A DNA stretch of 62,185 bases, filler included. It is 5 parts of 5 records of this genome, joined end to end, with 100 filler letters (N's around TTAATTAATTAA, not from the genome) between each part and the next. Parts side by side here need not be neighbours in the genome. Positions count along the whole stretch, not along the records: positions 34,599 to 44,696 come from SRR2962707_4801; 4 more parts are not named here. One strand, given 5' to 3'. Below, one piece after another: positions 31,122 through 52,530 of the stretch. Numbering within the stretch: the stretch's first letter is position 1; each line of letters starts with the position of its first letter. The position numbers were made by a program, and so were the translations under genes. The notes beneath the pieces are model-generated. The model was not told where the DNA came from. It saw only the letters and a program-made list of their open reading frames with translations, and did no database searches.

Positions 31122-31236
31122 GGGTACAATAAACTCATTGAATCCGTTTTCTGACTCAATCATGTTCAGTGAACGATGACAATACGCTCATTTCTGCAGT
31201 TTTGATGCAGTTTCGAGCAAATTGTACCAATACAAT
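31114..31236. promoter_or_regulatory. Candidate MocR operators in the divergent promoter
   Basis: ATTGT-N7-ACAAT (31114-31130), half-site TGACAAT (31177-31183), ATTGT-N6-ACAAT (31221-31236). Confidence 0.65.
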
Positions 31237-31253
31237 AAATGCCGGAGGCAGAG

Positions 31254-32045
31254 ATGAAGGCGGTTCTTTATCAGGTCGATGCGTTCGCGGATCGCGTCTT
31301 CGAGGGCAATCCGGCGGCCATCGTGCCGCTTGATGCGTGGCCTTCGGACGAAGTCATGCAGGCGGTGGCTGCCGAGAACAATCTCGCCGAGACGGCTTTC
31401 CTTGCTCCCGAAGGCGAGGGCTACCGGCTGCGCTGGTTCACGCCGACCGTCGAAGTCGATCTGTGCGGCCACGCGACGCTCGCCTCCGCCCATGTCCTTT
31501 TCACGCATCTCGGTTTCGCAAAGCCCGAAATCCGCTTCGAGACGCGGAGCGGCACGCTCGTCGTCAGCCGCGAGGGCGACAAGCTCGCGATGGATTTCCC
31601 GGCTGCGAAGCCCAAGCCCTATCCGGCGCCGGAAGGCATCGCGGCTGCGCTTGGCGGCAATGCACGCGCCTGGCTCAAGACCTCGAACCTCATGGCCGTG
31701 TTCGATACGGCGGAAGAGGTCGTCGCGCTCAAGCCCGATTTCCCGCAGCTCGCCCGTCTGCTGACGCCGCTCAACGCCGGGCTCATCGCGACCGCGCCGG
31801 GAAGCGACGGCATCGACTTCGTCTCGCGCTTCTTCGCGCCGTCGCACGGGATAGACGAGGACCCGGTCACGGGCTCGGCCCATTGCACCTCCGTTCCCTA
31901 CTGGTCGAAGAAGCTCGGGAAAAGCGATCTCGTGGCGCGGCAGGTGTCGAAGCGCGGCGGCACGCTCTGGTGCAGCGATGCCAGCGAACGTGTCGTCATT
32001 CGCGGCCGCGCCGCTGACTACATGAAAGCCGAAATCTCCTTCTGA
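31254..32045 (+). CDS. PhzF-family isomerase/epimerase
   Basis: VDAF..GNPA, ETAF, EVDLCGHATLA, EDPVTGSAH. Confidence 0.94.
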   Translation: MKAVLYQVDAFADRVFEGNPAAIVPLDAWPSDEVMQAVAAENNLAETAFLAPEGEGYRLRWFTPTVEVDLCGHATLASAHVLFTHLGFAKPEIRFETRSGTLVVSREGDKLAMDFPAAKPKPYPAPEGIAAALGGNARAWLKTSNLMAVFDTAEEVVALKPDFPQLARLLTPLNAGLIATAPGSDGIDFVSRFFAPSHGIDEDPVTGSAHCTSVPYWSKKLGKSDLVARQVSKRGGTLWCSDASERVVIRGRAADYMKAEISF

Positions 32046-32070
32046 ATTTCCTTCACATGGCAGTGCCGTC

Positions 32071-32664
32071 ATGCTCAACGATGCCGTCTTGCTCGGCGCG
32101 CTCTTCATCGCGACCATGAGTTTCACGCCGGGTCCGGCCAATCTCAGCCTTCTCTCCGTCGGGGCGTCGATCGGTCTCGCTCGCGCGTTTCCCTATCTCG
32201 TCGGCGTCTGGGTGGGCGGACTTTTCGTCATCCTTGCAGGAGCGGCGGGGCTCGGCGCGCTTTTCCTCGCGCTGCCGGAAGCATTCCTCGGGCTCAAGTT
32301 TCTCGGCTTCGCCTATATCTGCTGGCTCGCCTGGAAGCTTGCGCGCGCGGGTTTCGCCACAGGGGTTCACGCCGTCGCGCCGTCTTTCTGGTTAGGCGTC
32401 GGGCTCCATCCGGTGAACCCAAAAGCCTATGTCCAGTGCGTCATGGTGTTCTCGGTTTTCGTTTCACCCGACATCCCCTATCTGCCGCAGGCGGCGATCC
32501 TCGCCTTGCTCAGTCTTGTGCTGATGATGATGGCGACCTCACTCTGGGGCTTCGGCGGCGATGCGATCCGTCTCTTCGTGCGCGACCCCCGTGTCATGCG
32601 GTTCGTCGCGGTCGCGGCGTCCTGCCTCATGGTCGCGAGCGTCGGCGTCGCGCTCATTCTTTAG
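32071..32664 (+). CDS. LysE/RhtB-family exporter
   Basis: TPGPAN and NPKA motifs; about six TM helices. Confidence 0.92.
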   Translation: MLNDAVLLGALFIATMSFTPGPANLSLLSVGASIGLARAFPYLVGVWVGGLFVILAGAAGLGALFLALPEAFLGLKFLGFAYICWLAWKLARAGFATGVHAVAPSFWLGVGLHPVNPKAYVQCVMVFSVFVSPDIPYLPQAAILALLSLVLMMMATSLWGFGGDAIRLFVRDPRVMRFVAVAASCLMVASVGVALIL

Positions 32665-33553
32665 TCTGAATGTTCCGCCATTCGCTGATCGCGATGCCCG
32701 CGAGGATGAGGACAAGTCCGGCGAGCACGCGGATCTTCAACTCTTCGCCGAAGACGAGGAAGCCTGTCACGGCCGCGAAAACGGGGACGAGATAGTTGGA
32801 GAGCGAGACGAAAGTCGGTCCCGTCTTGCGGACCAGATGGAAGAAGACGAGCGCGGCAAATCCCGTCGAGAAGACGCCGAGCCCCGCTACGCCGAGAAGC
32901 GACGCCGTGCTCGCTTCGCCAAGCGAGGCGGGCGGCGTCGCGGTGCTCGCCATCGCCGTTCCGATCAGCGCTCCGGCCAGCATGACGCCGGATGATTTCG
33001 CGACGAGCGGCATGTCGGGCGCGCGCCGCGCCATCACATTGTTGCAGGCGAAGAAGAAGGCGCCGGCCAGCACGGCAAGCTGCCCCCATATCTTGTTGCC
33101 GCCGTCCGCCAGACCGGCGAGCGCGCCCGGGCCGATCACGACGACGAGCCCGGCAAAGCCGACGAGAAATCCGGCGGTCCGCATCGGCGTGATCCGGTCT
33201 TCCGGTACGAAGAAGCGGGCGATGACGAGCGTCGCAAGCGGCGTGAAGCCGATCAGGATGCCGGCAAGCGCGGAGGAGACATGCTGCTGTCCCCAGCTGA
33301 TGACGAAGAACGGCGCGATGTTGCCGACCAGCGCCAGCGCCGCGAACCAGCCCCATGCCTTCGCGCCGAGGGCGAGGCTTTCGCGCATCGCGAAGGCAAG
33401 CGGCAGGAGCAAGGCCGCGCCTGCGATCAGCCGTCCCGCCATCGTCCATTCCGGCGCAACCGTTTCCACCGCGATCTTGGCGAAGGCGAAGGCCGAGCCC
33501 CAAAGCGCGACGAGCAGGCCGAGCATGAGCCAATGTGACAATTTCTGCGCCAA
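32654..33553 (-). CDS. DMT/EamA-family transporter (start uncertain)
   Basis: LWGSAF, two EamA repeats, YLVPVFA..FGE. Confidence 0.88.
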   Translation of the reverse strand: MAQKLSHWLMLGLLVALWGSAFAFAKIAVETVAPEWTMAGRLIAGAALLLPLAFAMRESLALGAKAWGWFAALALVGNIAPFFVISWGQQHVSSALAGILIGFTPLATLVIARFFVPEDRITPMRTAGFLVGFAGLVVVIGPGALAGLADGGNKIWGQLAVLAGAFFFACNNVMARRAPDMPLVAKSSGVMLAGALIGTAMASTATPPASLGEASTASLLGVAGLGVFSTGFAALVFFHLVRKTGPTFVSLSNYLVPVFAAVTGFLVFGEELKIRVLAGLVLILAGIAISEWRNIQTKE

Positions 33554-33659
33554 GGCGATTCCCGTCAGGCTGGTTTTTCCGGTTCGCGTCCTAACACACT
33601 CAATGCCGCGGAATCCCACGGGTTCCGTGCAATGCGATTTTCCGCCACGGGACTGTCAT

Positions 33660-33688
33660 TTGACTTGCCCCCGGCACAGGCATATACG
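33660..33688 (+). promoter_or_regulatory. Putative sigma70 promoter of serC
   Basis: TTGACT-N17-TATACG, about 57 bp upstream of the ATG. Confidence 0.55.
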
Positions 33689-33745
33689 CAGCGGCGGGAC
33701 ACCCCTCCCCACCGAGGGGCAGCTATCTGAAAGGGTAGGTTGCAA

Positions 33746-34498
<753 letters not shown>

Positions 34499-34598
34499 NN
34501 NNNNNNNNNNNNNNNNNNNNNNNNNNNNNNNNNNNNNNNNNNTTAATTAATTAANNNNNNNNNNNNNNNNNNNNNNNNNNNNNNNNNNNNNNNNNNNN
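34499..34598. other. Artificial contig-join spacer
   Basis: N run with TTAATTAATTAA. Confidence 0.98.
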
Positions 34599-34679
34599 CA
34601 GGGATAACTTCAACGCGTTGTATTACACATGCTCTCTCCTCCTCTGCCTGCAGATCTGCAACTGGGCGTTCAGCTTCAA

Positions 34680-34719
34680 GAGAGAGAGGGAGGGAGGGAG
34701 TGAGTGAGAGCGAGAGAGA
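34680..34719. repeat. GA-rich simple repeat
   Basis: gagagagagggagggagggagtgagtgagagcgagagaga. Confidence 0.75.
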
Positions 34720-35160
34720 TTGCCCCACAAAGTCTCAGCATCCGCTAAACTTCTAAACTCTCCAGAAGCCTTTTCCCACCGGGCCCTGTACTTTGCCTTG
34801 ACAATCCGGCAAATAGTGAGTATATTATTAATTTTGCACTTTTGGTAGTTACTGAAACTTGGTCGCTTGCTCACGGGCGCTCAAGCGCTCGCTCGCTCGC
34901 TCACGCACGTCATCACTCTCGCTCCAGCGCTCTTCACTCAAGGTGCGGTGCGTTCGTTCGACTTCGACTTGAAGACAGCGCGGTGAACTGCTGCTGCTTC
35001 GACTTCCTTCGACTTTCAAAAGGAAGTCGGTGGGTGGCTTCGGACTGCGGCGTCGAGACCAACGCTGAATCGGCGTCAACTTCCGACCGACTTCAACTCG
35101 ACGACGGCGAGGACGCGGAGTGTGCGAGACGTTAGGTGAGGGTTCGATGTGACATACTCT

Positions 35161-35200
35161 TACATACATACATACAGACAGACATACAGACATACACACA
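35161..35200. repeat. (CATA)/(CAGA) microsatellite, possibly inside a 5'-UTR intron
   Basis: Directly visible; GT at ~35136 and CAG at 35344 flank it. Confidence 0.7.
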
Positions 35201-35394
35201 TTCATCATGTGAAATTGGTCGCTCGATGTTAAGGCACGACTGGCTAGCTTATTCGAGTGTCTTCTGTCTTTGCTTTTTTCTCTTTTTTTTTTCATTTGTA
35301 AATCGGGCGGAGTGACCGGAAGCACAGTTGAGAGTATTGTGCAGGTGATGCGGGGCGTTGCGTTCTTGGCAACGAAAAGTGAGACACTTTGAAG

Positions 35395-38300
35395 ATGCCT
35401 GAAATACGGCATGCAGTCGCTGTGGCAACTGTCACCCTGTTTTTGTTTTGTGGAGCGCTGCTGGACACCATTGACTCCACCGAGGCGGCGTATGTACCGT
35501 CCATGAGCCAAACTCCGTTGTCGTTCACTGTCCGAGCTCTGCTGGTTGTGCGCGGAGCCAAAGCGTTGTCAGAGTACAAGCACCTTTTTCCCAACGGTCG
35601 CGACATCGACGACAAGTACTTTGGTCACACCGGCAGTTATTCCCTCGGCGAGGATCCAGACTTAGGAGGAGAGTACTTTGGCCACAACGAATTGGGCCGT
35701 GATTTTTGTGCCTTTGATCGCTCTTGGAATGTGCGGCTTTGCGCAGCTGACAGCGATGCGGACGGCCAGACCAATGCTCTTGAAATGGGAGATCCGTGTT
35801 GTGGCTGGACAACAAGCAACACCTGGTACAGCACAACTGGCTACACGTCGTCTGACCTCGGGCATCCAGGAGACGCATCTCTGCAATCAACGCGAACCCC
35901 GCCACTTGCATGTCAAGATACTTGGGGGGGGCAGTGCCCTCTGCTCGAATGGTCTGCTCCAACCGTGTCTGGGCCAGGGCCGCCCGCCAAGAGTGCGGGA
36001 CTCCGGGCCATCAGCATTCGCTCATCCTCTGGAAACCGCGACGACGTTCTGGTCTTCGGCTTGGACGGATCTGCCGCGAACAAAAGCGCAAGTGCCTGTA
36101 CATGGTCCCTCACACTTGACAATGACGCTGAAACAGCTAAGTGGTCGCTGTTGTCCTCAGAGCAGAGCGCACCCATCCAAGCGAGTGTTGTCGGTCACCA
36201 TTCAGCGTTTGCTTACGATGCTGTCGCACACCGTGTTGTGTCCTTTGGTGGCCTAATGGCCAGTGGTGAAGCAATTGGGAGAACAGGGAGCTACAATATC
36301 GACACCAACACATGGAACATTGTTGGCGAACCAGATGATGTTGTGCCAGAACCCCGGTACAACTGTGCTCTTTTTTGTGGCCTGCGAAATACCGCTGCGC
36401 ATGTGCCTGCTATTGTTTGCCACCTTGGTGCCTAGCTAACGCAAGGGGCGCCCCGACACCTTTGACCTGAATTTTTCGGAAATGTCCTTTTAGGTATGGT
36501 GCCTCAGCAGGTGTCATTGGAAATGTCATGGTCATTATCGGGGGTCGCCATGCTAACGGTGGCGGGTTTTTCAATGACATTTGGGGGTTTAACATGTCGA
36601 CCAACACCTGGCTGAGGCTCTCGTCGTCAGCTCCTGTACCGGGCATTGACATTTTGAGCAATCCTGCAGCTGTTCTCTCCACGACGCGCCAAGTGTTGGT
36701 GACAAGCCGCAACCCACGTCAACAATGGCTTTGGAGCTATGATACACACCTTTGGGAGCGTACTTACTTCGGGTTAATTCCTGATACCGGTTCTGAAGTC
36801 TTCGCACTTAGCAGCTCTGGCAGCTCTGTGTACGTGCTGGATTGCAACAGTTCATCCAATGGTGCTGTAATTTGGGCAACATCGAACCGCACAATGCGCG
36901 GGGAGCAACGCAGTAGTACTCCAACGCGATGGGAAATGCTTAGTATTGCTGCTGACACCTCGCTCACGTTCAACGTTTCAGTTGCCGAGAGAACTCCAAG
37001 TGTGCTTAGCTACATTTGGGGGAGTGGTGACCTCATTGCTGGAGCGGGGCGTATGGTCGCCCTCGGGAGAAAAATTGACTCACGTTCGCAAAATGATGTT
37101 GACGGGGATGCAGTTGTTGACGTCACACTTTTTCAGCCGGCGGGCGATGGCTCTATTGCCAACTGCTGGTTTGCGCCCCCAGACGAAGGGGAAGAAACAA
37201 ACACGTCCATTACCAAGCTCCTTGTGCGCGGGTATGACGCGAGCACACTGCTCAAAGATGAGGCTGGGTAAGTTTAAGTCTATTGCCACAGAGTTTACCG
37301 TTGGAAATGTTTGTGCTCACGTGCGGAAGTCGCATCCTGTCCAGGTTTTACAAGGTGGGACTCTCCTGGACACTCCATCCCGATGGACGTGGCGCACGAT
37401 ATGCACTTCGCGCGGAAACGAACGGCTACGTCAGCTTTGCTTGGGTAAATGCTAATTGGCCCATGACCGATGATTTTCAGTACGAAGGTAAAATGTACGG
37501 AGCGGATGGCGTCTTTGGGTGGTTCGATGATGATGGCATTGGCCACGTGGAATCGTACGTTGGACGACATGTCGACGCATGTTTAATGAGAAGCTAGCGA
37601 AAAAGTATACATTTGCAATACAGTGTTGATGGTGCGCATCGGTCACGCTTTCTCCGTTCCCCCGCTTACCAAACGTTGAAATAGGTACTTTATGCCAACG
37701 TACGAATCAGCCGACATTTTGGCAGCAAAGAAAAGCAATGATTACGTTAACAACGTCACGCTTTACCGCGAAAATGGCTTCACAACGCTTGAATTTGAGC
37801 GAGCCTTTGAAGCAGCTGACGAAAGTCAGGACGTCGCCGTCGATCCAGATGGATCGTGGATGATGTGGGCCTTTGCACACGAAGGCTTGTTTCCCAATTG
37901 GGCTTCGGAGGGCGACCTAATGATCACGCACAGTGATCGCCACGAAGCTTTCATTGAGTGGGTTCATGTTGATCGATACCACGCTGAGCAAGATTTGGCC
38001 ATACTGCTTGGCGAGGTAACAACTGCGCCTCCAATGTTCTGCGACGCCCTTCACGACGACAGTGCCTTCGAACTGGGAGCCCCGTACGGTGCTAATGTTG
38101 GAAACTGTTCAGGAGCTTCAAATGGGGACACCTGTGTGCTCATTTGCAATGTTACACAAGGATTCAAACCCTTGACATCGACTGCAGAGTGTGTTGGGGG
38201 ACAATGGTGCGTGATGTGTCACTGGCTGGTATTCTATTCGCCCATATCCTGGAGCGAGAAGTGGACCAAAATTAATGCTGCACTCTCCGTTTTGACCTTG

Positions 38301-41300
38301 AAGGTATTTTCCGGCCGTATTTGAGTGCGAAGCGCTCCAGTGTCGCGAGCTTGACTTGTTTGTTTTGCTAGAAAACGCCGGTCTCAGCGACTACGTCACC
38401 GTTCCGATCCATCACGAGCAAAATGTTGTGAATTTTGTTTCTGGCGTCAACTATTCACTCCCCTGTCGCCCTGGCTTGAATCGCGACCCGAGTGTCAACG
38501 CACTCGCGGTGCTGTCCTGTTCCGGGTTTCAAAACATCAACGGTGACGTGTTTGGTGTGTGGAGTTTCCCTTCGGCTCGTTCGCTTGACGCAGCTCGAGC
38601 ATGTGAGCCAGTGACGAATTACTGTGCTCCGTTTGAAGCTGGCAACTTTGCTGGAGCATTTCCAACCACGATGGCCGCAACCTGTTCTGGCAACGCTTTG
38701 GGAGACACGTGCGAATTCAGTTGCCCCGCCTTCGGATACCAACCTGCATCCGCTCTTGCCACATGCGTCACCTCTTTCTCGGACACGAACGTCGGCGAGT
38801 GGTCGAACTCACACCTTGAGTGCGTCAAGATTACTGGCTTCTGTGCAAACACCGTGGAAACGGACATTGCAGGCGCACTGAACGCTGTCTTTCCCGCATG
38901 TGTTGGCCCAAACGCCACCGTGGATGCCGCTTGCATTGGGCAATGCTTACCTGGGTCAGTGAAAAGCGAAAAATATTCTGCATTCAAAGTGTGCCTTGTG
39001 GCTTGAGCCTGCAAAATAGTGAGGGTGTTAATTTTTGATTCGTTGCTACAGATTTGACTCTCCGACCCCCTCTGTCAATGTGACATGCGGGGTCAATGGA
39101 AGATGGGAGAACAGCTATGCCATCGAGAACTGCACTGAGATTGCTGGATTTTGTGCAGCCGCAACACTCCCTCTGGTGCTTGGCTCATTTCAGTGGTTCA
39201 ACAAGACTCAGTGTATGGAACAGTCAACAGTGGGCTCAAAGTGTCACGGAAGCTGCACAGGGTCTGACAAACTGGTCACTATTTCGTGCTTGTCAGATGG
39301 TTCCTGGTCAGTCCCCGAAACTTTTAATTGCGAGGGCCGATGTTCAACCAAGCTGGAGTTAAATGCAACGCTGTCAGGCCCTGCTTGCGATGGCGCTGCA
39401 ACGGACGACTCTTGGGAAATTGTGGTTGGGGACGAGTGCTCATTGACAACACCGATTGGTATTCAATGCGTTGCATACTCTGGTGACCTGGTGGTCGATG
39501 GTCCAGTTCTCTGTGGAAGCGTTGACTTTCCTGCCTCCTGCAGCGCGATGCCAGACTATTGCCCTCCACTTGAGCGTCAGCTGGTTCCCAATGCTACTGA
39601 CTGGGGCTGTGATCCCCCGGACAATTCTGTCGAGTCAATCTGTACGTCGCAGTGCGCGACTGGTTTTTTTCCATCCGGGTCTCCAGGCGTCATAGGTGGC
39701 AGTTTGTCTGCAAAAATTCGCATGCAGTGTGGATTGGATGGCATGTGGGTGGCACTGGGAAACAACCCAACCCGCTGTGACCCAATTCCTGATTTTTGCC
39801 CTGTTGCTTCCGAGTTCTTTGCTGCTACAGAAGATCAGCATTGGTCATGGTCAGCTCCATGTGATATTGGAGTTGTTGGCCAAGTGTGTAGAACGTCTTG
39901 TGCGTTTGGATACTACGACGCCGAGTCCACATCCAAATGTGTCGCCGATGGTACTTGGAGCCCTGGAAATATTTCGGTTGCATGCGAGCTTGTGGTGGAC
40001 TACTGTGATTTGCAAGACCTCGCTGCAATGGCAGCCATCACTGGTGTAATTAATCACGGGCGTATTCTGTGCACGCCGTCAAGTTTAAAGGATGTTGATG
40101 TCCTCGACCCCTTTGGTGACGCTGGTTTTGGAGTACCGCTGGGAACCAATTGCTCGCTTGTTTGTGACGCTGGATATCACCTATCCAACGGTGCAGACGC
40201 GGGGTATTCCCGGTGCGCGACCAATTTACAGTTGGAAGGCCAATGGGAGGTGCAGTCGTCAGACCCACCAACTTGCATAGCCGATGCAAACTATTGCCCT
40301 GCTGCTCCTGAATTAGAGTTTCAGAATGCCGACTGGTTCTGTGAGGATTCACGTTCAATTGGTGAAGCGTGCTATTCTGCATGCAGTCTGGGATTCGAGG
40401 GCCCAGGGTATGTTCCATCAAATTCATGCACGTCGAGTTGAACTAAAATGCCCGGTACCTCGCGCAACGAGGATTTGCATTGATTCTGCTGTTGCTGTCT
40501 GCGTTTCCTGTTTCGTTCATGTATTGGATGCCGCTGAACTAGGTTTTCTTTTTGGCACTCTCTCAACCTTTTCAACAACCGGAGTGCCAACGCAGTTGCT
40601 CTATGCGACACTGACGGCAATTGGAGAGTGGACGATCTTCTCGCAATGGATTGTGTTCGCTCGCCAAGCATTTGTTCCCGCGCTCCTCCCAGTTCCCTTG
40701 GACGAGTGTGGGCTGATTGTAGTGGTCGATCGGCAGGCGACAATTGTTCGGCTTTTTGCGACACTGGTTACCGGTACGACTGTGAAAGATGTTCATCATG
40801 TCTCACATGCCAAAAACGCACATGTGCCCGAAACGCTCAGCTCTGGTCTTGAATCCATAGGTATGGCGACAGCAAAGGGGTCTCCGCGCATCCAGAAATT
40901 GAGCTGTACGGGGAGCTTTCGTTTTGCAACGCAACGACGCAGCAATGGACCGCCGTGCGGCAAACATGCAGCCTGGAGCCAGAATTTTGCCCTGGATCTA
41001 TCAGTGAGTCGGTCGTCGACTTTGAAGAAAAGGGATGGCATGCGAAAGGACTGGGTTTTTCGTCAATCCCGTGCTTGGAGCGCTCTCTTGGGTCTGTATG
41101 TGCGGTGCGCTGTGCGGACGAATACGTCTCAAATGATGCAGTCGCTGTATGTGAGTCATCGGGGCAGTGGAAGCTTCCTCGCTTGGAGTGCGTCCTCGCG
41201 ACTTCTGAAGACGAGCTCAATGTTCCAGGAATGGCCCAGTTCCTCACGATTTCGGGGGAACGGGGACGCCTGCTTGGTTTATCGTGGAACCGTTTGAACG

Positions 41301-44300
41301 GCGATGAGATGCAACCAGCTGGGTTGGTTAAATTTTGCCACAGTCTGCTTTCATTGTGTTCTTGTGTTTGCGCCCATCAGAGGCACTTTTCAACCAGCTT
41401 CGTCACTGGTACGTTTGTATTCTTTGTGCAGGTACCTTGACCTCGCCATTCGCACGCGTCAAGACCAAGGGTATCTGGGCGTGGCATTTGGGGCAGTTGA
41501 AGAACTCATGATACCCGGCGATGGGGTGTGGGGTTGGGTTGATACCAGCGGCGAGGCCCACATTCTCGCAAATCGAATGGAGTCGTGCGTCTAGAATTGG
41601 CTGGCGGGCACCTGAACTTGTGGCGTGCGCACGCGTTTAGTAACAGTGGTTTACCGTGCGATGCACGCGATTGTTACGTGCAGGTACTTGGTCAGTGAAC
41701 TGGAGCTCACAGGTCTGAGCGATGACTACGTGGTTGACTGGGAGATTTCCGTTGAAGACGGATTTCAGGTAGTTTTCTTCTCCATTGCAAATTACTTCGG
41801 TGCTGCTCCGCTTGGGACCTAGCCTGGCTTCACAGTGCTGCGTTCTCATGCCCGGCTTTTCTAGACCTTTCGTGTCATCCTGCGCTTGGACGAAGTGGGT
41901 TTTTCTGGGAATCTAGTTCCCATCAAGTATGCCGCACTGACGCACTTTCAGTGGGCACTCAGTGACACTGAGGGGCTTACCATGCACACTGAGTGGGGAG
42001 CACTGGACGTAAATTTCTCGCACAACTACACCGGCGAAGGCGCAATCGCTACAGAGCAACATGATGAGCTCGATACAGTTGAAGTGACATACGTTGCGCT
42101 TGTTTGCGTGTGCTACGTCGGCCTTGTTACAACACTTGGCGTCATTTCATTCTTGCTTCCTCGCACGTTTCTTGCCTGCAATCATTCCTGTGGTCAGCTT
42201 CGTTGCTGCCGCGGCTCCACACTGGCAAATGTTCCTGACTCGACTGCGCACGGCACAATTCGACACCCTCGCAGCAACTGCTGGGCCGAAGGCTGGGCTC
42301 GAGTTGCAAGGTGGCCCATGTGGGCACGCACTGTGACATTCGATGGCATTTTGGTTGCGATGGACTGGTCTTTTATGGTTTGGACGTTCTATGGTGCAAC
42401 GCTTGCCGTGCTCGTCGCCTTTTTCTGGATGCTCAACAAGACAGGCGTTGAGGCAGCGAGATCGACCGGATGGATTTGTGTCGCTGTATTTGCGCTCTTG
42501 ATGATTCCCGCCAGTCGCGACTCATTTGTGCTGAAGATGATGCGGCTACCTTTTGACCGGGCAGTTGCGCACCATCGTGCCCTTGGCCGGGCTTTTGTGG
42601 TTTGTGAGATTGCTCATCTCAGCGTCATTCTTCGGGACTGGGGATTGACAGTCAGCAAGGCTCAAGAAAATTTTGGAACCGGCAATGTCATTCCTGTTTG
42701 GGGTTGGGTTACATTTGCGCTAACTTTGGCTGGAGCGGTACTTTCCGTGGAATGGTTTCGGCGTCGTTTGTTTGAAGTGTTCTACTACTCGCACCTTGTC
42801 ATGTTCTTTATGGCGTTGTGGTCCATGGCCGTGCACATCAACATTGTGCCGTTCCTTACTCTGTTTGGTGTTGAGCAAGAGCTCACAAAAACCAGTCTCA
42901 ATTCGTTTCTTGGGTTTTATGGGGGGATTGGACTACCCGTGCTGCTGTCCGTTAAGAAGTTTGCTGGATGTGCAAACGTTTCACTTGTTCTGCTGCGTTG
43001 TGTCGTGCATGCAGTCACGAAGTGGGGTATTTTCTGTAACGTAGGTATATCATTGATCGAGTACATCGCGGCATCGTTGCAGACGGTGCGTGCGGTCGGC
43101 CGGCTGGCTATCGCGTCATTCGCGCGGAAGTGCAAAAGTCTGGTGGCGGTGAACACGTTGTGTTCCTCGTCGTTCGACAACCTCGCGCACGGCACAAAGA
43201 CGGTGTAGTGCCGAGGATTCAATACCATGCTGGACAATACGTTTTTTTGGCGTTTCCTCAACTTTCGAGACTTGAATCCCATCCGTACACGATATCCTCT
43301 GCGCCGCCTTCCGACCACGATTGGGCGATCGCCAGCAATCCAGCCCTTGTGCGAAGAGCAAAAGTTGACCCGGATGATCAGACAGGTGAAGCTCAATGGA
43401 CCAACGACCAATTTGACATGAAATTTCACATCAAGACTCTTGGAGATCACACACTGGCCCTTGCCCGGTTGGTGCGTGAGTACTCTCGAAACCCCGAAGG
43501 CATCGATGTCCGGGTTCAGGGCCCTTACGGCAGCGTGCGCTTCGACCCGTTCATGTATCCCCGCATAATTCTTGTTGCGGGCGGCATCGGTGTGACCCCT
43601 TTGATCAGTATTGTTGAAACGGTTGTTCGGGAGGCGCGCTTCCGGGAGCAAATGAAGACCGCCGGTGTTGAAACGGGTGAGATTGCAGAGTTCTCTGGCC
43701 GTCAGAAAAACAAGCTGGCCAGGCCGATGCGACAGGAAGTCATACTGTTATGGTCCACGCGTTCTCTGCAAGAAGTCAAACTGTTTGAGCGCGTTTTGAA
43801 TGGAGCACTGTCGCTTCCTCCTGTTGATGGAAGTGCTCAAGAGGCCCAAGGGCCGTGTGTTTCAGTGATGACTCGGGTTTTCTTGACAACTGGGCGTGGG
43901 AAACCGGCTCAACCAAAGCCACCGAAAAGCGTCAATATTGTGCCGGTCAGTCGTACGTATGTCACCAACATGGCCGATGCCGACGTGGACACCACCAAAA
44001 ATCCAAACGAAAGTGACGAAGACGGCTTGCAACATGCGTCAAATAGAACTGCACAAATCGCAACTTCACCAGGTGCTAGCCGTCGACAACCAAGGAGAGG
44101 TGGCGGCCGGGGAATCAATGGGGATGAAGAGGGCGACACGGAGTTGTCCCCCAGCTTGCGCGCGTGCGTACAACGTGGGCGCCCCGACTATGAAGTCGAA
44201 TTTGACCGGTTCCTACATATGGATCCGCCTCTCACAAACACAGGCTTGAATAGTGCTGAAGCCACCGTGGACAACAACACGCACCAGCCAAGCAGGCCAA

Positions 44301-44446
44301 CCACGGCTGCCGCAAAAACGAAAGACGCTGTGGACCCCGAGTCGTGCTGTGTGCTGGCGTGTGGACCGTGGCAGATGATTGTGGCTGCACAGTGCGCTGC
44401 CTACCGCCGTGGATTCATTTTCCACAAAGAAGTATTTGACTTATAG
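35395..44446 (+). CDS. Spliced multidomain ferric-reductase-superfamily protein: SP-temptin-Kelch-DOMON-(Cys-rich CCP-like)n-DOMON-FRD-FAD-NADPH, ~2629 aa
   Basis: Eleven GT-AG introns (36357-36493, 37268-37344, 37555-37684, 38207-38303, 38955-39051, 40408-40542, 40774-40860, 41323-41431, 41585-41683, 41769-41864, 42947-43044) join the ORF fragments into a 7890-nt frame. Motifs: DSDADGQTNALEMGDPCC, HHRALGR..H, FYYSH..H, GQYVFL..HPYTISS, GPYG, AGGIGVTP, CGP, HKEVF. Confidence 0.85.
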
Positions 44447-44696
44447 CATGCCTGTCTGTCTCCCGCACGGCCCATTCCGACCCGCAGCGCAGGCGTTCAT
44501 TGCGAGTCGGCGCGCCACCGCATTATTTGACAGGGTTTGTCTGTCTGGAAAAGCTGCGTGGCGAGGAATTTCTTTAAAATACGATTTTACAATAGCATTC
44601 AGCACAGTATCCAGAATAGTTTTACAGAATACTACTTTAGACCACTACCGGTATTTTACGGCTCTTGCCCAACCACTTATTATGCGTCCTCACCAA

Positions 44697-44796
44697 NNNN
44701 NNNNNNNNNNNNNNNNNNNNNNNNNNNNNNNNNNNNNNNNTTAATTAATTAANNNNNNNNNNNNNNNNNNNNNNNNNNNNNNNNNNNNNNNNNNNN
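44697..44796. other. Artificial contig-join spacer
   Basis: N run with TTAATTAATTAA. Confidence 0.98.
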
Positions 44797-44797
44797 C

Positions 44798-45628
44798 ATG
44801 CAGATGATCGCCGAGATCTACGGCATCATGCGCGACGGGCTGGGCATGAGCCCGACGGACTGCGCCAAGGTTTTCGAGGAATGGGACAAGGGACCGCTCG
44901 ACAGCTATCTCATCGAAATCACCGGCCATGTGCTCAATGCGATGGATGACGAGTCCGGCAAGCCGCTGGTCGAAGTGATCCTCGACGCCGCCGGGCAGAA
45001 GGGCACCGGCCGCTGGTCGGCCATCGAAGCGCTCAATCTGGGCATTTCGGCCACCACGATCGAAGGTGCTGTCGCCGCGCGGTCGATTTCGGCCATGAAG
45101 GACGAACGCGTCCGGGGCGAGGAAATCTACGGCGCCGGGGCAAAGGGCAACGCCACCATTTCGCTTGAGGCGCTGGAAAAGGCGCTGCTGGCCGGCAAGA
45201 TCGCCGCTTATGCGCAGGGCTTTGCCGTCATGGCCAAGGCATCTGAGGAAAACGGCTGGAACCTGCCGCTGGCGACAATCGCCAAGATCTGGCGGGCCGG
45301 CTGCATCATCCGTTCGCGCTTCCTCGATCAGATTTCCCAGGCGTTCGACAGTGGTGGGGCGGCCAATCTTCTGACCCAGCCAGCCTTTATCGACATGATG
45401 AAGGACAGCAATGGCGCATTGCGTGCGGTGGTTGCGACCTGCGCGATCAACGAATTGCCCGCGCCGTGCCTCTCGTCGGCCCTGGCCTATTTCGATGCTT
45501 ACCGGCAGGGACGGGGAACGACAAACCTGACCCAGGGGCAGCGCGACTTCTTCGGCGCCCACGGGTTCAAGCGTTTGGACAAGGATGGTGACTTCCACCA
45601 CACCTGGCCGAGCCTGATCGGTAAATGA
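44798..45628 (+). CDS. gnd: 6-phosphogluconate dehydrogenase (decarboxylating), 5'-truncated
   Basis: MQMIAE, GQKGTGRW, WRAGCIIRS, QRDFFGAHGF. Confidence 0.97.
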   Translation: MQMIAEIYGIMRDGLGMSPTDCAKVFEEWDKGPLDSYLIEITGHVLNAMDDESGKPLVEVILDAAGQKGTGRWSAIEALNLGISATTIEGAVAARSISAMKDERVRGEEIYGAGAKGNATISLEALEKALLAGKIAAYAQGFAVMAKASEENGWNLPLATIAKIWRAGCIIRSRFLDQISQAFDSGGAANLLTQPAFIDMMKDSNGALRAVVATCAINELPAPCLSSALAYFDAYRQGRGTTNLTQGQRDFFGAHGFKRLDKDGDFHHTWPSLIGK

Positions 45629-45652
45629 ACCAGAGGCCGGGGCAACCCGGCC

Positions 45653-47029
45653 TTATTTGCTTGCGGGCCGTGCGGCGGTTGTCTCGTCGTTTTCGACCCC
45701 ATTGCCATTCTCATCTTCAGGCAATTCGGTTTCCGGCGGATTGACGGCCTGACCGCTCGGCTGAGCATAGCGCGGCTTTTCACGTGCTTCATCGTAGGGC
45801 CGGTGCGAGAAGTCGTATCTGACAGCGGCATAGATAAAGAGCGCCATGGCGGCCGCGATGATGAGCCCGGCCGCAAAGAACGGCGCACCGGGAAACGTGA
45901 ACGGCCGCAGATCGTTGGTGGTGAAAAAGGAAAACATCTGGGTCGCGGCGAGCGGCGCGATGATGGCAGTTAGCGAATTTGAGGCGTTGACGGCACCCTG
46001 GAGTTCGCCTTGCTGGTTGGCGCGTGCGTTGTTGGCCAGAAGTCCGGTGAGGGCCGGGGCCGCGATGCCCGAAAAAGCGCCGACGACAAGGAACGTCCAA
46101 AGGCCCAGTTCGGTGTGGATCATCGAGACGCCGATAAAGGCGACCATGGCCAGCGCCAGCCCGATGATCACGGTGGCCGTGACCCCAAGATAGCGGGTAG
46201 AAAATCCCACCAGAAGCGCCTGGCTCAGCGCAAACAGGATGCCGAATATGGCCAGCGAACGACCGACCTGGGATGGGCCCCAGTCGAATTGCTCGATGGT
46301 GAAGAAGTTCCAGACGTTGGGATAAGTCTGTCCTGCCAGCGAAAACAGGAACACGCAGCCGAGAAGGACAAAGATCACCGGCGTATTCCGGAAGGCCCAG
46401 AGTGCGCCGAAGGGATTGGCGCGCTTCCAGTTGAACCGGCGGCGGCGGAATTTCGAAAGGCTCTCGGGCAGGACGAAAAACCCGAACACCACATTGGCGG
46501 CGGCCAGCGCCGAGGCGAGGTAGAAGGGCGCACGGGGCCCGAACTCGCCCAACTCGCCGCCGATCACTGGTCCGACGATGAAGCCCAGCCCGAAGGCGGC
46601 CCCGATCAGCCCGAACCGCTGGGAGCGCTTTTCCTGGGGCGTGATGTCGGCGACATAGGCGGTCGCCGTGCCCATCGCCGCGCCGCAAATCCCCGAGAGC
46701 ACGCGGCCCACAAAGAGCCAGACGAGCGTGGGCGCCCAGGCCATGATGAGGTAGTCGAGCGAAAGGCCCACCAGCGAGAGCAGCAGGATCGGCCGTCGCC
46801 CCCATCTGTCGGACAGATTGCCCAGGATGGGGGAGAAGATGAACTGCATGGACGCATAAACGAAGATCAGATAGCCGCCGATCTTGGCAGCATCGGTTAT
46901 CGCTTCGTGCGAAAGCTCCACGATCAGCCCCGGAAGCACCGGCAGTATGATGCCCAGTCCCACGATGTCGAGAAATACCGTGAGAAGGATAAAAACGAGC
47001 GTTAGCTTGGACTGGGGATTAACGCGCAT
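45653..47029 (-). CDS. TCR/Tet-like DHA1 MFS transporter
   Basis: GIILPVLP, GNLSDRWGRRP, GFIVGPVIGG, LPES, QGELQG. Confidence 0.92.
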   Translation of the reverse strand: MRVNPQSKLTLVFILLTVFLDIVGLGIILPVLPGLIVELSHEAITDAAKIGGYLIFVYASMQFIFSPILGNLSDRWGRRPILLLSLVGLSLDYLIMAWAPTLVWLFVGRVLSGICGAAMGTATAYVADITPQEKRSQRFGLIGAAFGLGFIVGPVIGGELGEFGPRAPFYLASALAAANVVFGFFVLPESLSKFRRRRFNWKRANPFGALWAFRNTPVIFVLLGCVFLFSLAGQTYPNVWNFFTIEQFDWGPSQVGRSLAIFGILFALSQALLVGFSTRYLGVTATVIIGLALAMVAFIGVSMIHTELGLWTFLVVGAFSGIAAPALTGLLANNARANQQGELQGAVNASNSLTAIIAPLAATQMFSFFTTNDLRPFTFPGAPFFAAGLIIAAAMALFIYAAVRYDFSHRPYDEAREKPRYAQPSGQAVNPPETELPEDENGNGVENDETTAARPASK

Positions 47030-47120
47030 GAGATTGTACTGCGGCCTTTGGACAAGGGTTCAGTTGGCATATAGGCGGGGGGAAAGGCAAGAACCAACGG
47101 GCTGGTTCCGGGTTCTCCGA

Positions 47121-48311
47121 TCAACTCTTTCCCGATTGAACGGCATCATACCCATAAAGCCATGCCAGGCGTTTGAAATGTCCCTCTGGGCCTTCACTTC
47201 TGATGACCGCGTTGCGGGCCAAAGCGAACGGAAAGCCCATATGAAAGACTTTTCCGTTGCTGGCGGAAACGTCCTGCACACGCTTGACGCGCTCCTGCCG
47301 CAGCGCGGCAAAGCGGGAAAAGGCGTGTCCGGCGCTCGGCGATGCCGCGAGCAGGGGTGCCAGAACCGCCGCATCCTCGATGCCCATGGCCGCGCCCTGC
47401 GCCTGGAACGGCAGCGTGGCGTGCGCAGCGTCACCGATCAGCCCGATGGCGCCCTTGTGCCAGATTGGTGTCTGGACGCTCGACAGGACCCAGGGGGTCC
47501 AGCCCTCGCCCACTGATTCCAGAATACGGGCCAACCGGTTGTCCTTGCCCGGCTTTATGCGCGGAGTGCGTTGGTCGAGGACGGAAAGATCGCGTTCTTT
47601 TTCCTGCGTGAACAGCGCCAGATTGACCGCGTTGCGGTGCGGCAGGGGATAGGCCACCAGGTGAAAACGGGGATCAAGGAACAGGCTGGTTCGGTCAAGA
47701 TCCAGAACCCCGGCGAGCGCCTCGGGTGGGACCAGTGCCCGCCATGCGACCTTGCCGGAGTATTGTGGGTCCGGTCCACCGAGATCGCGTGTTCGGGTTA
47801 CCGAGCGCACGCCGTCGGCGCCGACAAATGCGAAGGGCTTTGCCTTGCGCGTCTTTCCGTCGGGCTCCTGCGCGGTCACCGTCAGGGCATCGCCTGAACG
47901 CTCCAGCGTAAAATCGGTGACGGAAAAGACGATGTCGATATTGGCGAAACGCCTGGCGGCCGCATGGAGCGCTTCGAGCAGGTCGGACCGGTGCATCACG
48001 GCATAGGGCGCGCCGAAGCGGGCTTCGATGGCCTTGCCAAGCGTGAGGGTTTGCAGCGGCTTTGCCCGGGCGTCGGGAAAGATGTCGATGCCCTCGGGGG
48101 TAAAGCTTTTTTCCGCAATCGCCTGGGAAAGCCCCAGATTATCGAGCACTTTTCGCGCGTTTGCGCTGATCTGAAGTCCGGCGCCGAATTCAGAAACCGA
48201 CTCGTTACGTTCGAGCACCACCACGTGCAGGCCGAATTTGGCGAGCGCCAATGCAAGGGTCAGTCCGGCGATGCCAGCGCCCGCGATATAGATCGTGCGA
48301 GGAGCGCCCAT
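47121..48311 (-). CDS. FAD-dependent monooxygenase (salicylate-hydroxylase-like)
   Basis: GAGIAG, GADGVRS, GDAAHATLPFQAQGAAMGIEDA. Confidence 0.92.
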   Translation of the reverse strand: MGAPRTIYIAGAGIAGLTLALALAKFGLHVVVLERNESVSEFGAGLQISANARKVLDNLGLSQAIAEKSFTPEGIDIFPDARAKPLQTLTLGKAIEARFGAPYAVMHRSDLLEALHAAARRFANIDIVFSVTDFTLERSGDALTVTAQEPDGKTRKAKPFAFVGADGVRSVTRTRDLGGPDPQYSGKVAWRALVPPEALAGVLDLDRTSLFLDPRFHLVAYPLPHRNAVNLALFTQEKERDLSVLDQRTPRIKPGKDNRLARILESVGEGWTPWVLSSVQTPIWHKGAIGLIGDAAHATLPFQAQGAAMGIEDAAVLAPLLAASPSAGHAFSRFAALRQERVKRVQDVSASNGKVFHMGFPFALARNAVIRSEGPEGHFKRLAWLYGYDAVQSGKS

Positions 48312-48317
48312 GGGGCT

Positions 48318-48563
48318 CTAGGCGTGTTCGACCTCGAACACCGCGCTGGGCGGGTTGGCCGCGCCATGGGGCAGGGCGGGGCTGAAAACATAGAGCGTCG
48401 AGCAATAGGGGCAGACGATCTCGGTGTCGTGGCCCATGTCAAGAAACACATGCGGGTGGTCGAAAGGTGGCTTGGCGCCGACGCACTGGAATTCCTTGGC
48501 GCCGATCTCGATACGGGCCAATCCTTCGGAATTGTGGAAGTGAGGGGTTCCGTGCTGTGCCAT
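48318..48563 (-). CDS. zf-CHCC zinc-finger protein
   Basis: C..PFDHPHVFL..CPYC. Confidence 0.9.
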   Translation of the reverse strand: MAQHGTPHFHNSEGLARIEIGAKEFQCVGAKPPFDHPHVFLDMGHDTEIVCPYCSTLYVFSPALPHGAANPPSAVFEVEHA

Positions 48564-48699
48564 GAAAGCGACCATCCGGCTGGGCTTGTTTGAAATCGGG
48601 CGGACCATACCGATTTGGGCCGGTCATGGCCAGAGGCATGTTGGCGCTGAGGTGCGGGGTTGGTAAGAGAGGACGATTTCAGAATCGAAAGAATCCCTT

Positions 48700-49458
48700 A
48701 TGCCGGTTTTCCAATCCGAAGGTTTCGCTCTTGCCTATGAGGTCCATGGCGAGGGCCGGCCCATCGTTGCCGTCCATGGCTTTGCATCGAATGGCAACGT
48801 CAACTGGGTGGCGACCGGCTGGGTCAAGGAGCTGACCGAGGCGGGCTATCAGGTCATAACCCTGGATAATCGCGGTCACGGCGCGTCGGAAAAGATCTAC
48901 GATCCGTCTGTTTACGGTGCGCCGGACATGGCGCGGGACGTTGCCAATCTCATCGACCATCTGGGGTTCGAGAAGGCCGCGCTGATCGGCTATTCAATGG
49001 GCGCACGGATCAGCGCTTTCGTTTGCATCCAGAACCCGGAAAAAGTCGCCTGCGCAATTTTCGGCGGGTTGGGTGGTAACATGGTCAAGCCGATGCTCGA
49101 CAGCGACGAGATCATCGCCGGGCTCAATGCGCCGACCTTGGCGGAAGTGACCCACAAGACCGGGCGGCAATTCCGCATTTTTGCCGAGCACACAAAGAGC
49201 GACCTCAAGGCGCTTTCGGCCTGTATGGCCGGTTCGCGCACGCGGATGTCGCCGGAGCAGGTCCGGCAGATCGACGTGCCGGTTCTGGTGGCCGTCGGCA
49301 GCGAGGACGATGTGGGGGGCGACCCCCAAGCGCTCGCCGCGCTGATGACGCATGGCGAAGCGCTGACCATCGAACGCCGCGACCACATGCGGGCGACCGG
49401 GGACCCCCAGTTCAAGCGCGGAGCGCTGGACTTCCTGGCGCGGGTTTATCCGGCATAA
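48700..49458 (+). CDS. Alpha/beta hydrolase
   Basis: HGFAS, DNRGHG, GYSMGA, RDH. Confidence 0.92.
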   Translation: MPVFQSEGFALAYEVHGEGRPIVAVHGFASNGNVNWVATGWVKELTEAGYQVITLDNRGHGASEKIYDPSVYGAPDMARDVANLIDHLGFEKAALIGYSMGARISAFVCIQNPEKVACAIFGGLGGNMVKPMLDSDEIIAGLNAPTLAEVTHKTGRQFRIFAEHTKSDLKALSACMAGSRTRMSPEQVRQIDVPVLVAVGSEDDVGGDPQALAALMTHGEALTIERRDHMRATGDPQFKRGALDFLARVYPA

Positions 49459-49555
49459 GGCAAAAGTGAACCAATTTGCTTTGGAACCCTTTGTTTGAGA
49501 CAATGGGTTCGCCTATATGTGGCAACCTGAAAAAATCGCAGAGTGCGGAGAAGTC

Positions 49556-50377
49556 ATGTCCTCGAGCGTCAAGAAGCCCGGCAATATCAAGGCCGTCGAT
49601 CCCATATGGGATGCGATGACAGCCGAGGCCGAGCGCATCTGCGCGGACGAGCCCTTTCTCACGCAACTGGCGATATCGAGCGTTCTCAACCATTCGAGCT
49701 TCGAATCGGCGCTGGCCCACCGGCTGGCGGCGCGGCTCGATCACTCGGACGTGCCGGCCGATCTGATCCGCCAGGCGTTCGATGAAATGCTTGAGGACCA
49801 TCCTGAGATAACCGCCTCTGCGCGCGCCGATCTGGCCGCGACGCTGGAGCGCGATCCGGCCTGCCATCGGGTGATCGAGCCCTTCCTGTTCTTCAAGGGT
49901 TTTCAGGCCATCCAGACCCATCGCTTTGCCCACGCGCTTTGGGGTACCGGCCGTCGCGATTTTGCGCTCTATCTCCAAAGCCGGTCGAGCCAGGTGTTCC
50001 AGACGGACATCAATCCCGCCGCCCGCATCGGCAAGGGCATAATGCTCGATCACGGCACCGGCTTTGTCGTCGGTGAAACCGCGTCGATCGGCGATCATTG
50101 TTCGATCCTGCATGCTGTCACGCTCGGCGGCACCGGCAAGGCCGATCAGGACCGCCACCCAAAGATCGGCAATGGCGTTCTGATCGGGGCAGGGGCCAAG
50201 ATTTTGGGCAACATCAAGGTGGGCGATTGCTCGCGCATCGCCGCCGGTTCGGTGGTGCTCAAGGAAGTGCCCGAGCGTACGACGGTGGCCGGCGTTCCGG
50301 CCAAGGTTGTGGGCGAGGCCGGTTGCAACCAGCCGGCCACGGTCATGGACCAGATCGTCATGGTTTCGCGCGACTAG
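49556..50377 (+). CDS. cysE: Serine O-acetyltransferase
   Basis: RDPAC, FKGFQA, DHGTG, VTLGGTGK..DRHPK, hexapeptide repeats. Confidence 0.97.
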   Translation: MSSSVKKPGNIKAVDPIWDAMTAEAERICADEPFLTQLAISSVLNHSSFESALAHRLAARLDHSDVPADLIRQAFDEMLEDHPEITASARADLAATLERDPACHRVIEPFLFFKGFQAIQTHRFAHALWGTGRRDFALYLQSRSSQVFQTDINPAARIGKGIMLDHGTGFVVGETASIGDHCSILHAVTLGGTGKADQDRHPKIGNGVLIGAGAKILGNIKVGDCSRIAAGSVVLKEVPERTTVAGVPAKVVGEAGCNQPATVMDQIVMVSRD

Positions 50378-50782: not shown

Positions 50783-50811
50783 TTCGCTGAAAACAATTGC
50801 AGTATTTTGAG

Positions 50812-52525: not shown

Positions 52526-52530
52526 CGGAG

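Follow-up and report, generated by a model that had tools for sequence, protein, structure and literature searches.

A twelve-exon marine-protist gene for a predicted DOMON-bearing ferric reductase with an exceptionally long modular ectodomain

Results

Gene structure

The window analysed here, a stretch of 62,185 nucleotides (nt) made of five joined contigs, carries on its plus strand at 35395..44446 a gene whose product combines a predicted transmembrane (TM) reductase of the ferric-reductase (FRE) kind with an ectodomain of Temptin, Kelch, DOMON and Sushi-like domains. The transcribed span (35304..44511, +) comprises 12 exons and was defined with an 8046-nt contig of a public sequencing run (X1), which aligned to the window piece 34599-44696 with 0 mismatches and 0 gaps over 35304-44511, leaving 5' and 3' untranslated regions of 91 and 65 nt. 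Run X1 contains 0.82 of the stretch's sampled words, and its RNA nature is a guess only, but since its contig lacks precisely the 11 GT..AG segments of the locus it is taken to represent the spliced form. The segments so removed, 77-137 nt long (n=11), are introns 1-6 (36357-36493, 37268-37344, 37555-37684, 38207-38303, 38955-39051 and 40408-40542, +) and introns 7-11 (40774-40860, 41323-41431, 41585-41683, 41769-41864 and 42947-43044, +). By contig alignment the coding sequence is divided into exons 1-6 (35395-36356, 36494-37267, 37345-37554, 37685-38206, 38304-38954 and 39052-40407, +) and exons 7-12 (40543-40773, 40861-41322, 41432-41584, 41684-41768, 41865-42946 and 43045-44446, +), which join into a single open frame of 2629 amino acids (aa) plus stop (2630 codons), from an ATG at 35395 to a stop at 44444-44446; the leader has an in-frame stop upstream of the ATG. 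On the genomic plus strand at 35383-44446, the stop-to-stop open reading frames (ORFs) are a dozen fragments in shifting frames. The preliminary description of this DNA had joined such fragments across eleven canonical introns into one frame of 2630 codons and proposed a single gene rather than several; the spliced contig bears out both the coordinates and the joints exactly, and one contig with one open frame speaks for one gene. The locus is thus a real 12-exon marine-protist gene for a 2629-residue membrane protein.

Exons 2-9 (36494-41584) all have lengths divisible by three and share one intron phase, and the intron positions within them do not match the borders of the Sushi-like modules described below.

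Head and stalk of the ectodomain

The protein begins with a predicted signal peptide (35395..35487, +; hydrophobic segment at residues 4-28, hydropathy peak 2.09) and a Temptin_C domain at residues 56-159 (35560..35871, +; Pfam 68.7 bits, cut-off 27), whose core DSDxDG..N..E.GDP.C.W is invariant among 11 aligned sequences. A Kelch beta-propeller region follows at residues ~182-560 (35938..37211, +), spanning intron 1 and recognised by Pfam on exons 1-2; in the exon ORFs Kelch_1 scores 31.0, Kelch_4 29.5 and Kelch_3 25.8 bits, each over its cut-off. In the homolog on the seawater-metagenome contig L001, one of two contigs (L001 and L002) introduced more fully below, the unbroken Kelch region matches positions 5-221 of a 221-position KLHDC2-type model. 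A search of the ESM Atlas with the L001 head gave no usable match.

Between the two DOMON domains lies a stalk of 12 Sushi/CCP-like modules with 70 Cys (residues ~760-1690; 38016..41224, +), delimited by Pfam Sushi matches and by the Cys pattern. The Sushi consensus is a module of ~60 residues that contains four Cys, the last of them preceded by a Trp. Eleven of the 12 modules have six Cys and the remaining one has four, and the pattern C..C..C-x3-C..G[YF]..C..G.W..C is Sushi-like with one extra Cys pair (C-x3-C). Pfam Sushi scores 32.9 bits on exon 6 (cut-off 20.7) and 69.9 bits in L001, and the modules are accordingly read as a variant form of the Sushi/CCP/SCR domain, as far as their sequence pattern goes. 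Stalk length differs about threefold within the clade.

DOMON domains and candidate heme ligands

DOMON-1 occupies residues ~579-745 (37266..37973, +) and spans introns 2 and 3. Pfam DOMON recognises it as two partial matches, profile positions 5-63 on exon 3 and 77-123 on exon 4, as expected of a single domain that intron 3 interrupts, and a profile built from ten relatives' DOMONs gives it 47.1 bits. The same profile places DOMON-2 at residues ~1700-1860 (41252..42038, +; 18.1 bits, E 1.1e-7), across introns 8-10, ending ~15 residues before the first TM helix. When both window DOMONs were aligned with those of the ten relatives, one Met and one His column were invariant; in the window protein they are Met629 (37493-37495) and His731 (37929-37931) of DOMON-1 and Met1749 (41508-41510) and His1843 (41985-41987) of DOMON-2, all on the plus strand, which are therefore candidate heme ligands by alignment column. 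In a DOMON alignment of 19 rows, Met dominates its column and His is almost invariant in its own. Among 71 aligned DOMONs (the two of the window protein and 69 from 150 relatives, some misses being alignment shifts or truncations) the Met is present in 47/71, the His in 57/71 and both in 35/71, and both window DOMONs have both. Both homologs keep the ligand columns, with Met and His retained in the DOMON-2 of L001 and in that of L002.

The identity of the two domains draws further support from the homologs. Pfam DOMON scores 44.6 bits on the unsplit DOMON-1 of L001 and 44.1 bits elsewhere in the homologs' ORFs, tblastn cross-matched one protein's DOMON-1 with another's DOMON-2, and hhalign of the 19-row alignment against the first two thirds of the L001 DOMON-2 gave a probability of 93.3%, with Met on Met. 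Because the window DOMONs are split by introns, the L001 DOMON-1 was modelled as a stand-in. Its AlphaFold2 model (predicted local distance difference test, pLDDT, 82.1; predicted template modelling score 0.81) matched in Foldseek the DOMON of dopamine beta-hydroxylase (3.6e-7), the cytochrome domains of cellobiose dehydrogenase (1pl3, 1d7b, 1d7c and 4qi3; 1.7e-6 to 3.9e-5), the cytochrome b domain of pyranose dehydrogenase (6.8e-6) and the heme subunit of ethylbenzene dehydrogenase (2.5e-3). A DOMON sequence profile run against the PDB likewise ranked dopamine beta-hydroxylase first (3.4e-8), a protein whose Met column is occupied by Leu. The beta-sandwich fold of DOMON-1 is thus supported by modelling, the fold model being that of the L001 homolog rather than of the window's own domain. 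In the plant CYBDOM protein HYP1, M90 and H174 are proposed as the DOMON heme ligands by comparison with cellobiose dehydrogenase, as reported in PMC10784544, and the order and spacing of Met and His in the window DOMONs resemble those of this pair. Ligand columns, fold and the HYP1 precedent together make it likely that both DOMONs bind heme b.

Membrane topology and reductase core

An extra TM helix, here TM0, is predicted at residues 1876-1900 (42084..42158, +; hydropathy peak 2.33), followed by a predicted cytosolic loop at residues 1901-1968 (42159..42362, +) that carries the motif CN.S.GQLRCCR in the alignment. This Cys-rich motif is kept in 4/4 relatives that cover the loop and might serve lipidation, metal binding or regulation. 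The six-TM ferric-reductase domain (FRD) spans intron 11 (42363..43051, +; Pfam Ferric_reduct 59.1 bits, cut-off 28) and is followed by an FAD-binding domain with HPYT at residue 2242 (43052..43546, +; Pfam FAD_binding_8 40.7 bits) and by an NADPH-binding domain with GGIGVTP at 2342, ACGPW at 2601 and the C-terminal FIFHKEVFDL (43547..44443, +; NAD_binding_6 32.6 bits). The NADPH-binding domain is split by a charged, Gly/Pro-rich insert at residues ~2441-2560 (43877-44236), which is poorly conserved (41% identity to L001 and 31% to L002). Hydropathy peaks mark four of the six core helices (1970-1992, 1998-2025, 2077-2097 and 2107-2138), and the His-bearing third helix (~2037-2060) and the last helix (~2145-2165) were placed by sequence reading. 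As TM0 and the six core helices make seven, an odd number, the ~1850-residue arm is predicted to lie outside and the FAD/NADPH part inside.

Two pairs of His, 2039/2053 in helix 3 and 2112/2126 in helix 5, are 14 residues apart in both cases and are the candidate heme ligands of the core; all four columns are conserved at >=90%, with the same spacing, in each of two alignments (77 + 73 = 150 best relatives). The heme His of human NOX2 are 101/115 and 209/222 according to PMC3591440. A profile of the clade aligned to the NOX2 dehydrogenase domain with an E value of 4.5e-22, which is clear homology. By the account of Zhang 2013 (PMC3591440), the NOX signature consists of four positions, including His-119 and the Thr-178/Gly-179 dipeptide of helix 4. 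The position of His-119, four residues after the outer heme His2053, is occupied in the window protein by Ile2057, and by V or I in four aligned clade relatives. Trp2081-Gly2082 falls on NOX2 178-179 by ungapped extension, the profile alignment itself starting at 187 (helix 5, 187-219), and an equivalent of Thr-178 is very likely absent. No EF-hand, NADPH_Ox or peroxidase-like domain was found in the 12 exon ORFs (Pfam, E up to 0.01). Given Ile2057, the lack of an EF-hand and the His spacing of the relatives, the core is assigned to the FRE type and not the NOX type; its sequence features are those of a eukaryotic FRE with DOMON, a predicted metalloreductase.

The preliminary description had anticipated most of this layout. 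Its order of signal peptide, temptin domain, Kelch repeats, DOMON-1, Cys-rich repeats, DOMON-2, ferric-reductase, FAD- and NADPH-binding domains agrees with Pfam, profile and hydropathy, which add only the extra TM helix, and its quoted motifs lie at residues 628 (KMYGADG), 729 (ITHSDR), 1748 (LMIPGDG) and 1841 (TMHTEW). The long extracellular arm, the roughly one dozen CCP-like repeats, the paired His of the ferric-reductase domain and the Met/His of the DOMONs, the last as family-conserved sequence columns, were likewise recovered. Its overall interpretation stands in part, for the gene, domain order, ectodomain and ferric-reductase domain, but its assignment to the NOX family gives way in view of Ile2057, the missing EF-hand and the FRE-type His spacing.

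Homologs in seawater metagenomes

An exhaustive search, in which exon 11 was compared with 1.84 billion representative proteins, returned 267 at E up to 0.001, four of them below 1e-30 and all four fragments. Two of these four best proteins sit on the seawater-metagenome contigs L001 and L002, where tblastn of the spliced protein detected collinear homologs; as P0003 and P0004 lie on neither contig, there are at least two further relatives. Residues 7-2629 of the window protein correspond to L001 4373-12265 at 40-54% identity, with everything from Temptin through most of the stalk within one unbroken 1607-aa ORF, and residues 2-1041 and 1400-2629 correspond to L002 3849-9774, with ~360 stalk residues missing. 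Pfam recognised Temptin_C, Kelch, DOMON, Sushi, Ferric_reduct and the FAD and NAD domains in the ORFs of L001 and L002, and a frame-restoring GT..AG intron is possible at each ORF break. The window gene has 11 introns, versus apparently 2 in each homolog (L001 9109-9184 and 9924-10000; L002 7443-7524); all three genes have an intron where window intron 10 lies (after ..EDG.Q), and L001 also shares the position of intron 7. The genes flanking the L001 homolog, for COG7, a CCCH finger protein and GH47, are eukaryotic. Identity to L001 and L002 is highest in the FRD (76/55%), DOMON-2 (67/58%) and DOMON-1 (58/56%) and lowest in the Kelch region (39/39%) and the stalk (40/34%). That DOMON-1 is as conserved as the core suggests that it is probably redox-active as well. 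The homologs would mark conservation in at least three marine lineages.

The 1600-aa ectodomain ORF of L001, searched against proteins of 881-2806 aa, retrieved, apart from itself, only the ORF of L002 and a single unrelated Kelch protein. Against longer proteins exon 11 matched only P0001 and exon 6, from the stalk, matched none, the latter a weak negative since the ORF of L001 was also missed. By these sequence comparisons the combination of two DOMONs, a Sushi stalk and a Kelch/Temptin head is found only in the window protein, L001 and L002, in keeping with the preliminary remark that the full architecture was not that of any described protein.

Among the 150 nearest FRD relatives (Pfam, E up to 1e-5), Ferric_reduct was detected in 147, DOMON in 39 and Temptin_C in 8, and Kelch and Sushi in 0/150; the relatives' DOMON profile raised the DOMON count to 54/150. 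The long relatives are markedly modular. One of them is the metagenome protein P0033 (1943 aa), with an N-terminal Temptin_C, a long ectodomain, a membrane-proximal DOMON with Met and His, and FRD, FAD and NAD domains. Among the others, P0037 (Planoprotostelium) joins a GH5 cellulase and a DOMON to the FRD, P0040 (Planoprotostelium) has a BBE-type oligosaccharide oxidase and three DOMONs, P0048 (Paulinella) has three cytochrome b5 domains and a DOMON, P0007 and P0076 carry Reeler and fn3, and P0100 carries PAP2. Two to four tandem DOMONs precede the core in P0137, P0095, P0056, P0047 and P0040, most of them with Met and His. In P0137, P0095 and P0056 the two or three tandem DOMONs retain both residues, and such relatives look like short extracellular multi-heme chains.

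In four of eight short Temptin-FRD relatives (P0029, P0027, P0054 and P0023) the leader is directly followed by a His (A/HEEY, A/HSDY, A/HSRY and S/HSKY, the slash marking the end of the leader), with a conserved GH further on. This N-terminal His and the second His are reminiscent of copper 'histidine brace' sites. The window protein, L001 and L002 lack the post-leader His and have ~25 extra residues there.

The remainder of the window

The reductase gene fills its 10,098-base piece (34599-44696) and has no gene neighbours within it. Six other ORFs of the piece, on both strands, matched no Pfam family, and an Rfam scan of the piece returned no family at threshold. Four identical spacers (44 N, TTAATTAATTAA, 44 N) at 15432-15531, 27774-27873, 34499-34598 and 44697-44796 separate the five pieces, which vary in G+C from 0.526 to 0.646. 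As the window consists of five joined contigs, adjacent genes in it give no context for the reductase gene, and the spacers together with the presence of both bacterial-type and eukaryotic-looking pieces indicate a mixed assembly as the source. Piece 1-15431 holds bacterial-type genes, including a UvrB gene (713-2812) and, near it, an uninterrupted 2417-aa ORF (4231-11484, +) with Pfam SpvB, FG-GAP and RHS-repeat matches, which resembles a toxin-complex protein of the RHS/Tc type or a polymorphic toxin. Piece 15532-27773 has a eukaryotic look, with HEAT/EF3-like ORFs, piece 27874-34498 is bacterial-type (GntR-aminotransferase and EamA), and piece 44797-62185 carries transporters of the MFS, BCCT and SulP families, which by themselves do not separate bacterial from eukaryotic.

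Discussion

A proposed model for extracellular electron delivery

Taken together, these data are best explained if the protein is a DOMON-bearing FRE that works at the cell surface as an NADPH-dependent metalloreductase and carries an exceptionally long, modular ectodomain, a reading to which we give a probability of about 0.6 and in which the function, the surface location, the electron direction and the acceptor are what we infer. This model proposes that electrons would pass from cytosolic NADPH to FAD and then across the membrane, through an inner b heme held by His2039/His2112 and an outer b heme held by His2053/His2126. The outer heme may then reduce a b heme in DOMON-2 (Met1749/His1843), only ~15 residues above the membrane, and DOMON-2 would in turn reduce an acceptor outside the cell, for which Fe(III) or Cu(II) in chelated or colloidal form is the likeliest candidate. 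The path as a whole would parallel that of a CYBDOM, with NADPH as the driving donor. DOMON-1, at the far end of the stalk beside the Kelch/Temptin part, could be loaded only by collision with DOMON-2, of the same or a neighbouring molecule, since the stalk has no cofactor site; once reduced, it might hand its electron to whatever the head binds, as the Kelch/Temptin head presumably binds a target.

Such a swinging-arm relay between the two DOMONs is put forward tentatively, as a possibility rather than an expectation. A Sushi module is ~4 nm long. By our own estimate a 12-module tether would give an effective concentration of ~10 micromolar, conjecturally enough for a tethered shuttle. A further step, which we regard as rather unlikely, is that the protein represents eukaryotic long-distance extracellular electron transfer, in which a DOMON-1 held by the stalk tens of nanometres away feeds solid or colloidal iron, or else another cell or a surface that the Kelch/Temptin head has captured. 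If true, marine protists would possess, in the form of a tethered shuttle, an equivalent of the cytochromes that metal-reducing bacteria display on their outer surface, and the tandem multi-DOMON relatives P0137, P0095 and P0056 would be a short-range form of distance electron transfer.

Several observations weigh against this model or parts of it. The TM part is divergent, as the clade profile aligned only 31 positions of the NOX2 TM part at 13 bits, and a phmmer search of the PDB with exon 11 gave only two chance matches (E ~0.9), neither of them a NOX or FRE chain. DOMON-2 was not detected by Pfam on the exon ORFs, since three introns split the domain over four exons, and L001 ORF2, which holds two thirds of its DOMON-2, matched 0 Pfam families. 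The structure model of Temptin_C, from the 11-row alignment, is of low confidence (pLDDT 46.6). For the relay in particular, a stalk with no cofactor site means that any transfer between the DOMONs needs large movements, and the L002 stalk has only ~4-5 modules and 25 Cys, versus ~12 modules in the window protein and L001 and 70 Cys in the former, so that a long reach would not be essential.

Alternative explanations

The nearest alternative, and the second option of the preliminary description, is an NADPH oxidase producing reactive oxygen species (ROS), in which the outer or DOMON hemes would reduce O2 to superoxide while the Kelch/Sushi arm aims it at a contacted cell or particle. The same NADPH-FAD-two-heme core, the C-terminal FIFHKEVFDL with ACGPW, the homology of the dehydrogenase domain to NOX2 and a DUOX-like topology of extra helix and ectodomain are all consistent with it, and Zhang 2013 (PMC3591440) mentions some stramenopile and red-algal 'preNOX' proteins that lack His-119 and may yet make ROS. 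However, the outer-heme neighbourhood has Ile2057 in place of His-119 and, by the ungapped extension only, Trp in place of Thr-178, EF-hand and NADPH_Ox are missing from every exon ORF at the threshold given above, the two His of helix 5 are spaced 14 apart, matching the relatives, versus 13 in NOX2, and the closest relatives are DOMON- or Temptin-bearing FRE-type proteins; we therefore hold an oxidase to be unlikely. Less probable still is that the protein serves not metal uptake but the supply of electrons to a distinct redox enzyme or substrate outside the cell, as in the breakdown of polysaccharide or other organic matter. The mobile cytochrome domain of cellobiose dehydrogenase supplies electrons to copper monooxygenases, and it is with the cytochrome domains of cellobiose and pyranose dehydrogenases that the L001 DOMON-1 model matches; the fusions of DOMON-FRD to a GH5 cellulase (P0037), a BBE-type oxidase (P0040) and cytochrome b5 (P0048) point the same way. 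The window protein itself, though, has no extramembrane enzyme domain recognisable by Pfam, and its gene is alone on its contig with no partner known.

Kelch and Sushi are typical binding modules, and the protein might accordingly be an adhesion or recognition receptor, with these modules as binding surfaces, DOMON-1 binding sugar instead of heme and the reductase acting only as an anchor or signalling unit. DOMONs are reported to bind sugars besides heme (PMC3591440, PMC10784544), and the top PDB hit for the DOMON profile, dopamine beta-hydroxylase, has a DOMON free of heme. Yet that protein has Leu where both window DOMONs keep Met along with His, the redox domains are the best conserved and the Kelch region and stalk the least, and all core cofactor motifs are intact, which leaves a receptor about as improbable as the electron feed. 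Finally, two or more genes, or a chimeric contig, could have been read as one: continuity in this organism rests on one assembled contig from a run of guessed RNA nature, and a contig spanning two genes would not prove a single transcript. Against this, the frame stays open for 2629 codons through all 11 joints, two independent metagenome loci have the same domain order, the 1607-aa ORF of L001 alone spans Temptin to most of the stalk, and frame-restoring GT..AG introns are available at every remaining break of the homologs, so that an artefact is given next to no weight.

Significance

How marine protists gain access to iron in colloids, particles and strong chelates is still an open question, one accepted route to such bound iron being reduction by ferric reductases at the cell surface. 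With a standard reductase core linked to a long binding arm and to what are probably two extracellular cytochromes, the present protein is a testable candidate for reduction away from the membrane. Together with the window protein, the fusions of relatives with GH5, oligosaccharide oxidase, cytochrome b5, Reeler/fn3 and Temptin show that the DOMON-FRD unit is a modular platform, one only briefly mentioned in print so far, in Zhang 2013 (PMC3591440). The recurrent Temptin-FRD fusion (8/150 relatives) would be the first Temptin context beyond mollusc pheromones, judged by literature titles among the matches listed, in which temptin papers concern animal or unrelated topics and none is linked by title to a reductase. 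The DOMON-FRE kind as such is already known. Within this enzyme class, which has received little study and may deliver electrons to extracellular targets, the window protein is an unusually elaborate member.

Comparison with known systems

Simpler DOMON-FRD fusions, whose existence the preliminary description had noted, are in print. Zhang 2013 (PMC3591440) describes a DOMON-bearing eukaryotic FRE clade (model M10) with one or two extracellular DOMONs, its members being seven Naegleria gruberi paralogs, Albugo laibachii F0X089 and Phytophthora infestans D0MUZ3, and by title or abstract it is the only paper treating such fusions among the literature matches listed for DOMON and ferric reductase. 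As in the window protein, the DOMON of M10 FREs is N-terminal to the FRD, and it is to the M10 kind that the window protein's nearest relatives belong. As described there, however, M10 forms have only DOMON(s) outside, to which the window protein adds Temptin, a Kelch propeller and 12 Sushi-like modules, and its DOMONs lie ~950 residues apart rather than in tandem, although the supplements of Zhang 2013 may list longer forms. P0033 shares Temptin_C, a long ectodomain, a proximal DOMON and FRD/FAD/NAD with the window protein but lacks Kelch, Sushi and the distal DOMON, its middle having Fn3_assoc and CHB_HEX_C matches. P0154 (1891 aa, 'predicted ferric reductase') belongs to the 90% identity cluster of P0042, which has no Temptin in Pfam.

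The CYBDOM HYP1 places a DOMON over a two-heme b561 and is reported to reduce ferric and cupric acceptors by electron flow through the plasma membrane (PMC10784544; CRR/HYP1, PMC10784552). HYP1 and CRR thus resemble the window protein in having an extracellular Met/His DOMON above a two-heme transmembrane core, but that core is b561, which is unrelated, ascorbate takes the place of NADPH as donor, and there is one DOMON with no stalk or head. DUOX, with a signal peptide, large ectodomain, extra TM helix, 6-TM core and cytosolic dehydrogenase as outlined in Zhang 2013 (PMC3591440), is like the window protein in this topology, but its peroxidase-like ectodomain, EF-hands and NOX signature have no counterpart here. 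In cellobiose dehydrogenase the Met/His ligation of heme b is cited in PMC10784544. The cytochrome domain of that enzyme has the fold matched by the L001 DOMON-1 model, at only 11-13% identity. It is a tethered cytochrome that takes electrons away from the flavin domain. Cellobiose dehydrogenase is nonetheless soluble, secreted and fungal, with one short linker.

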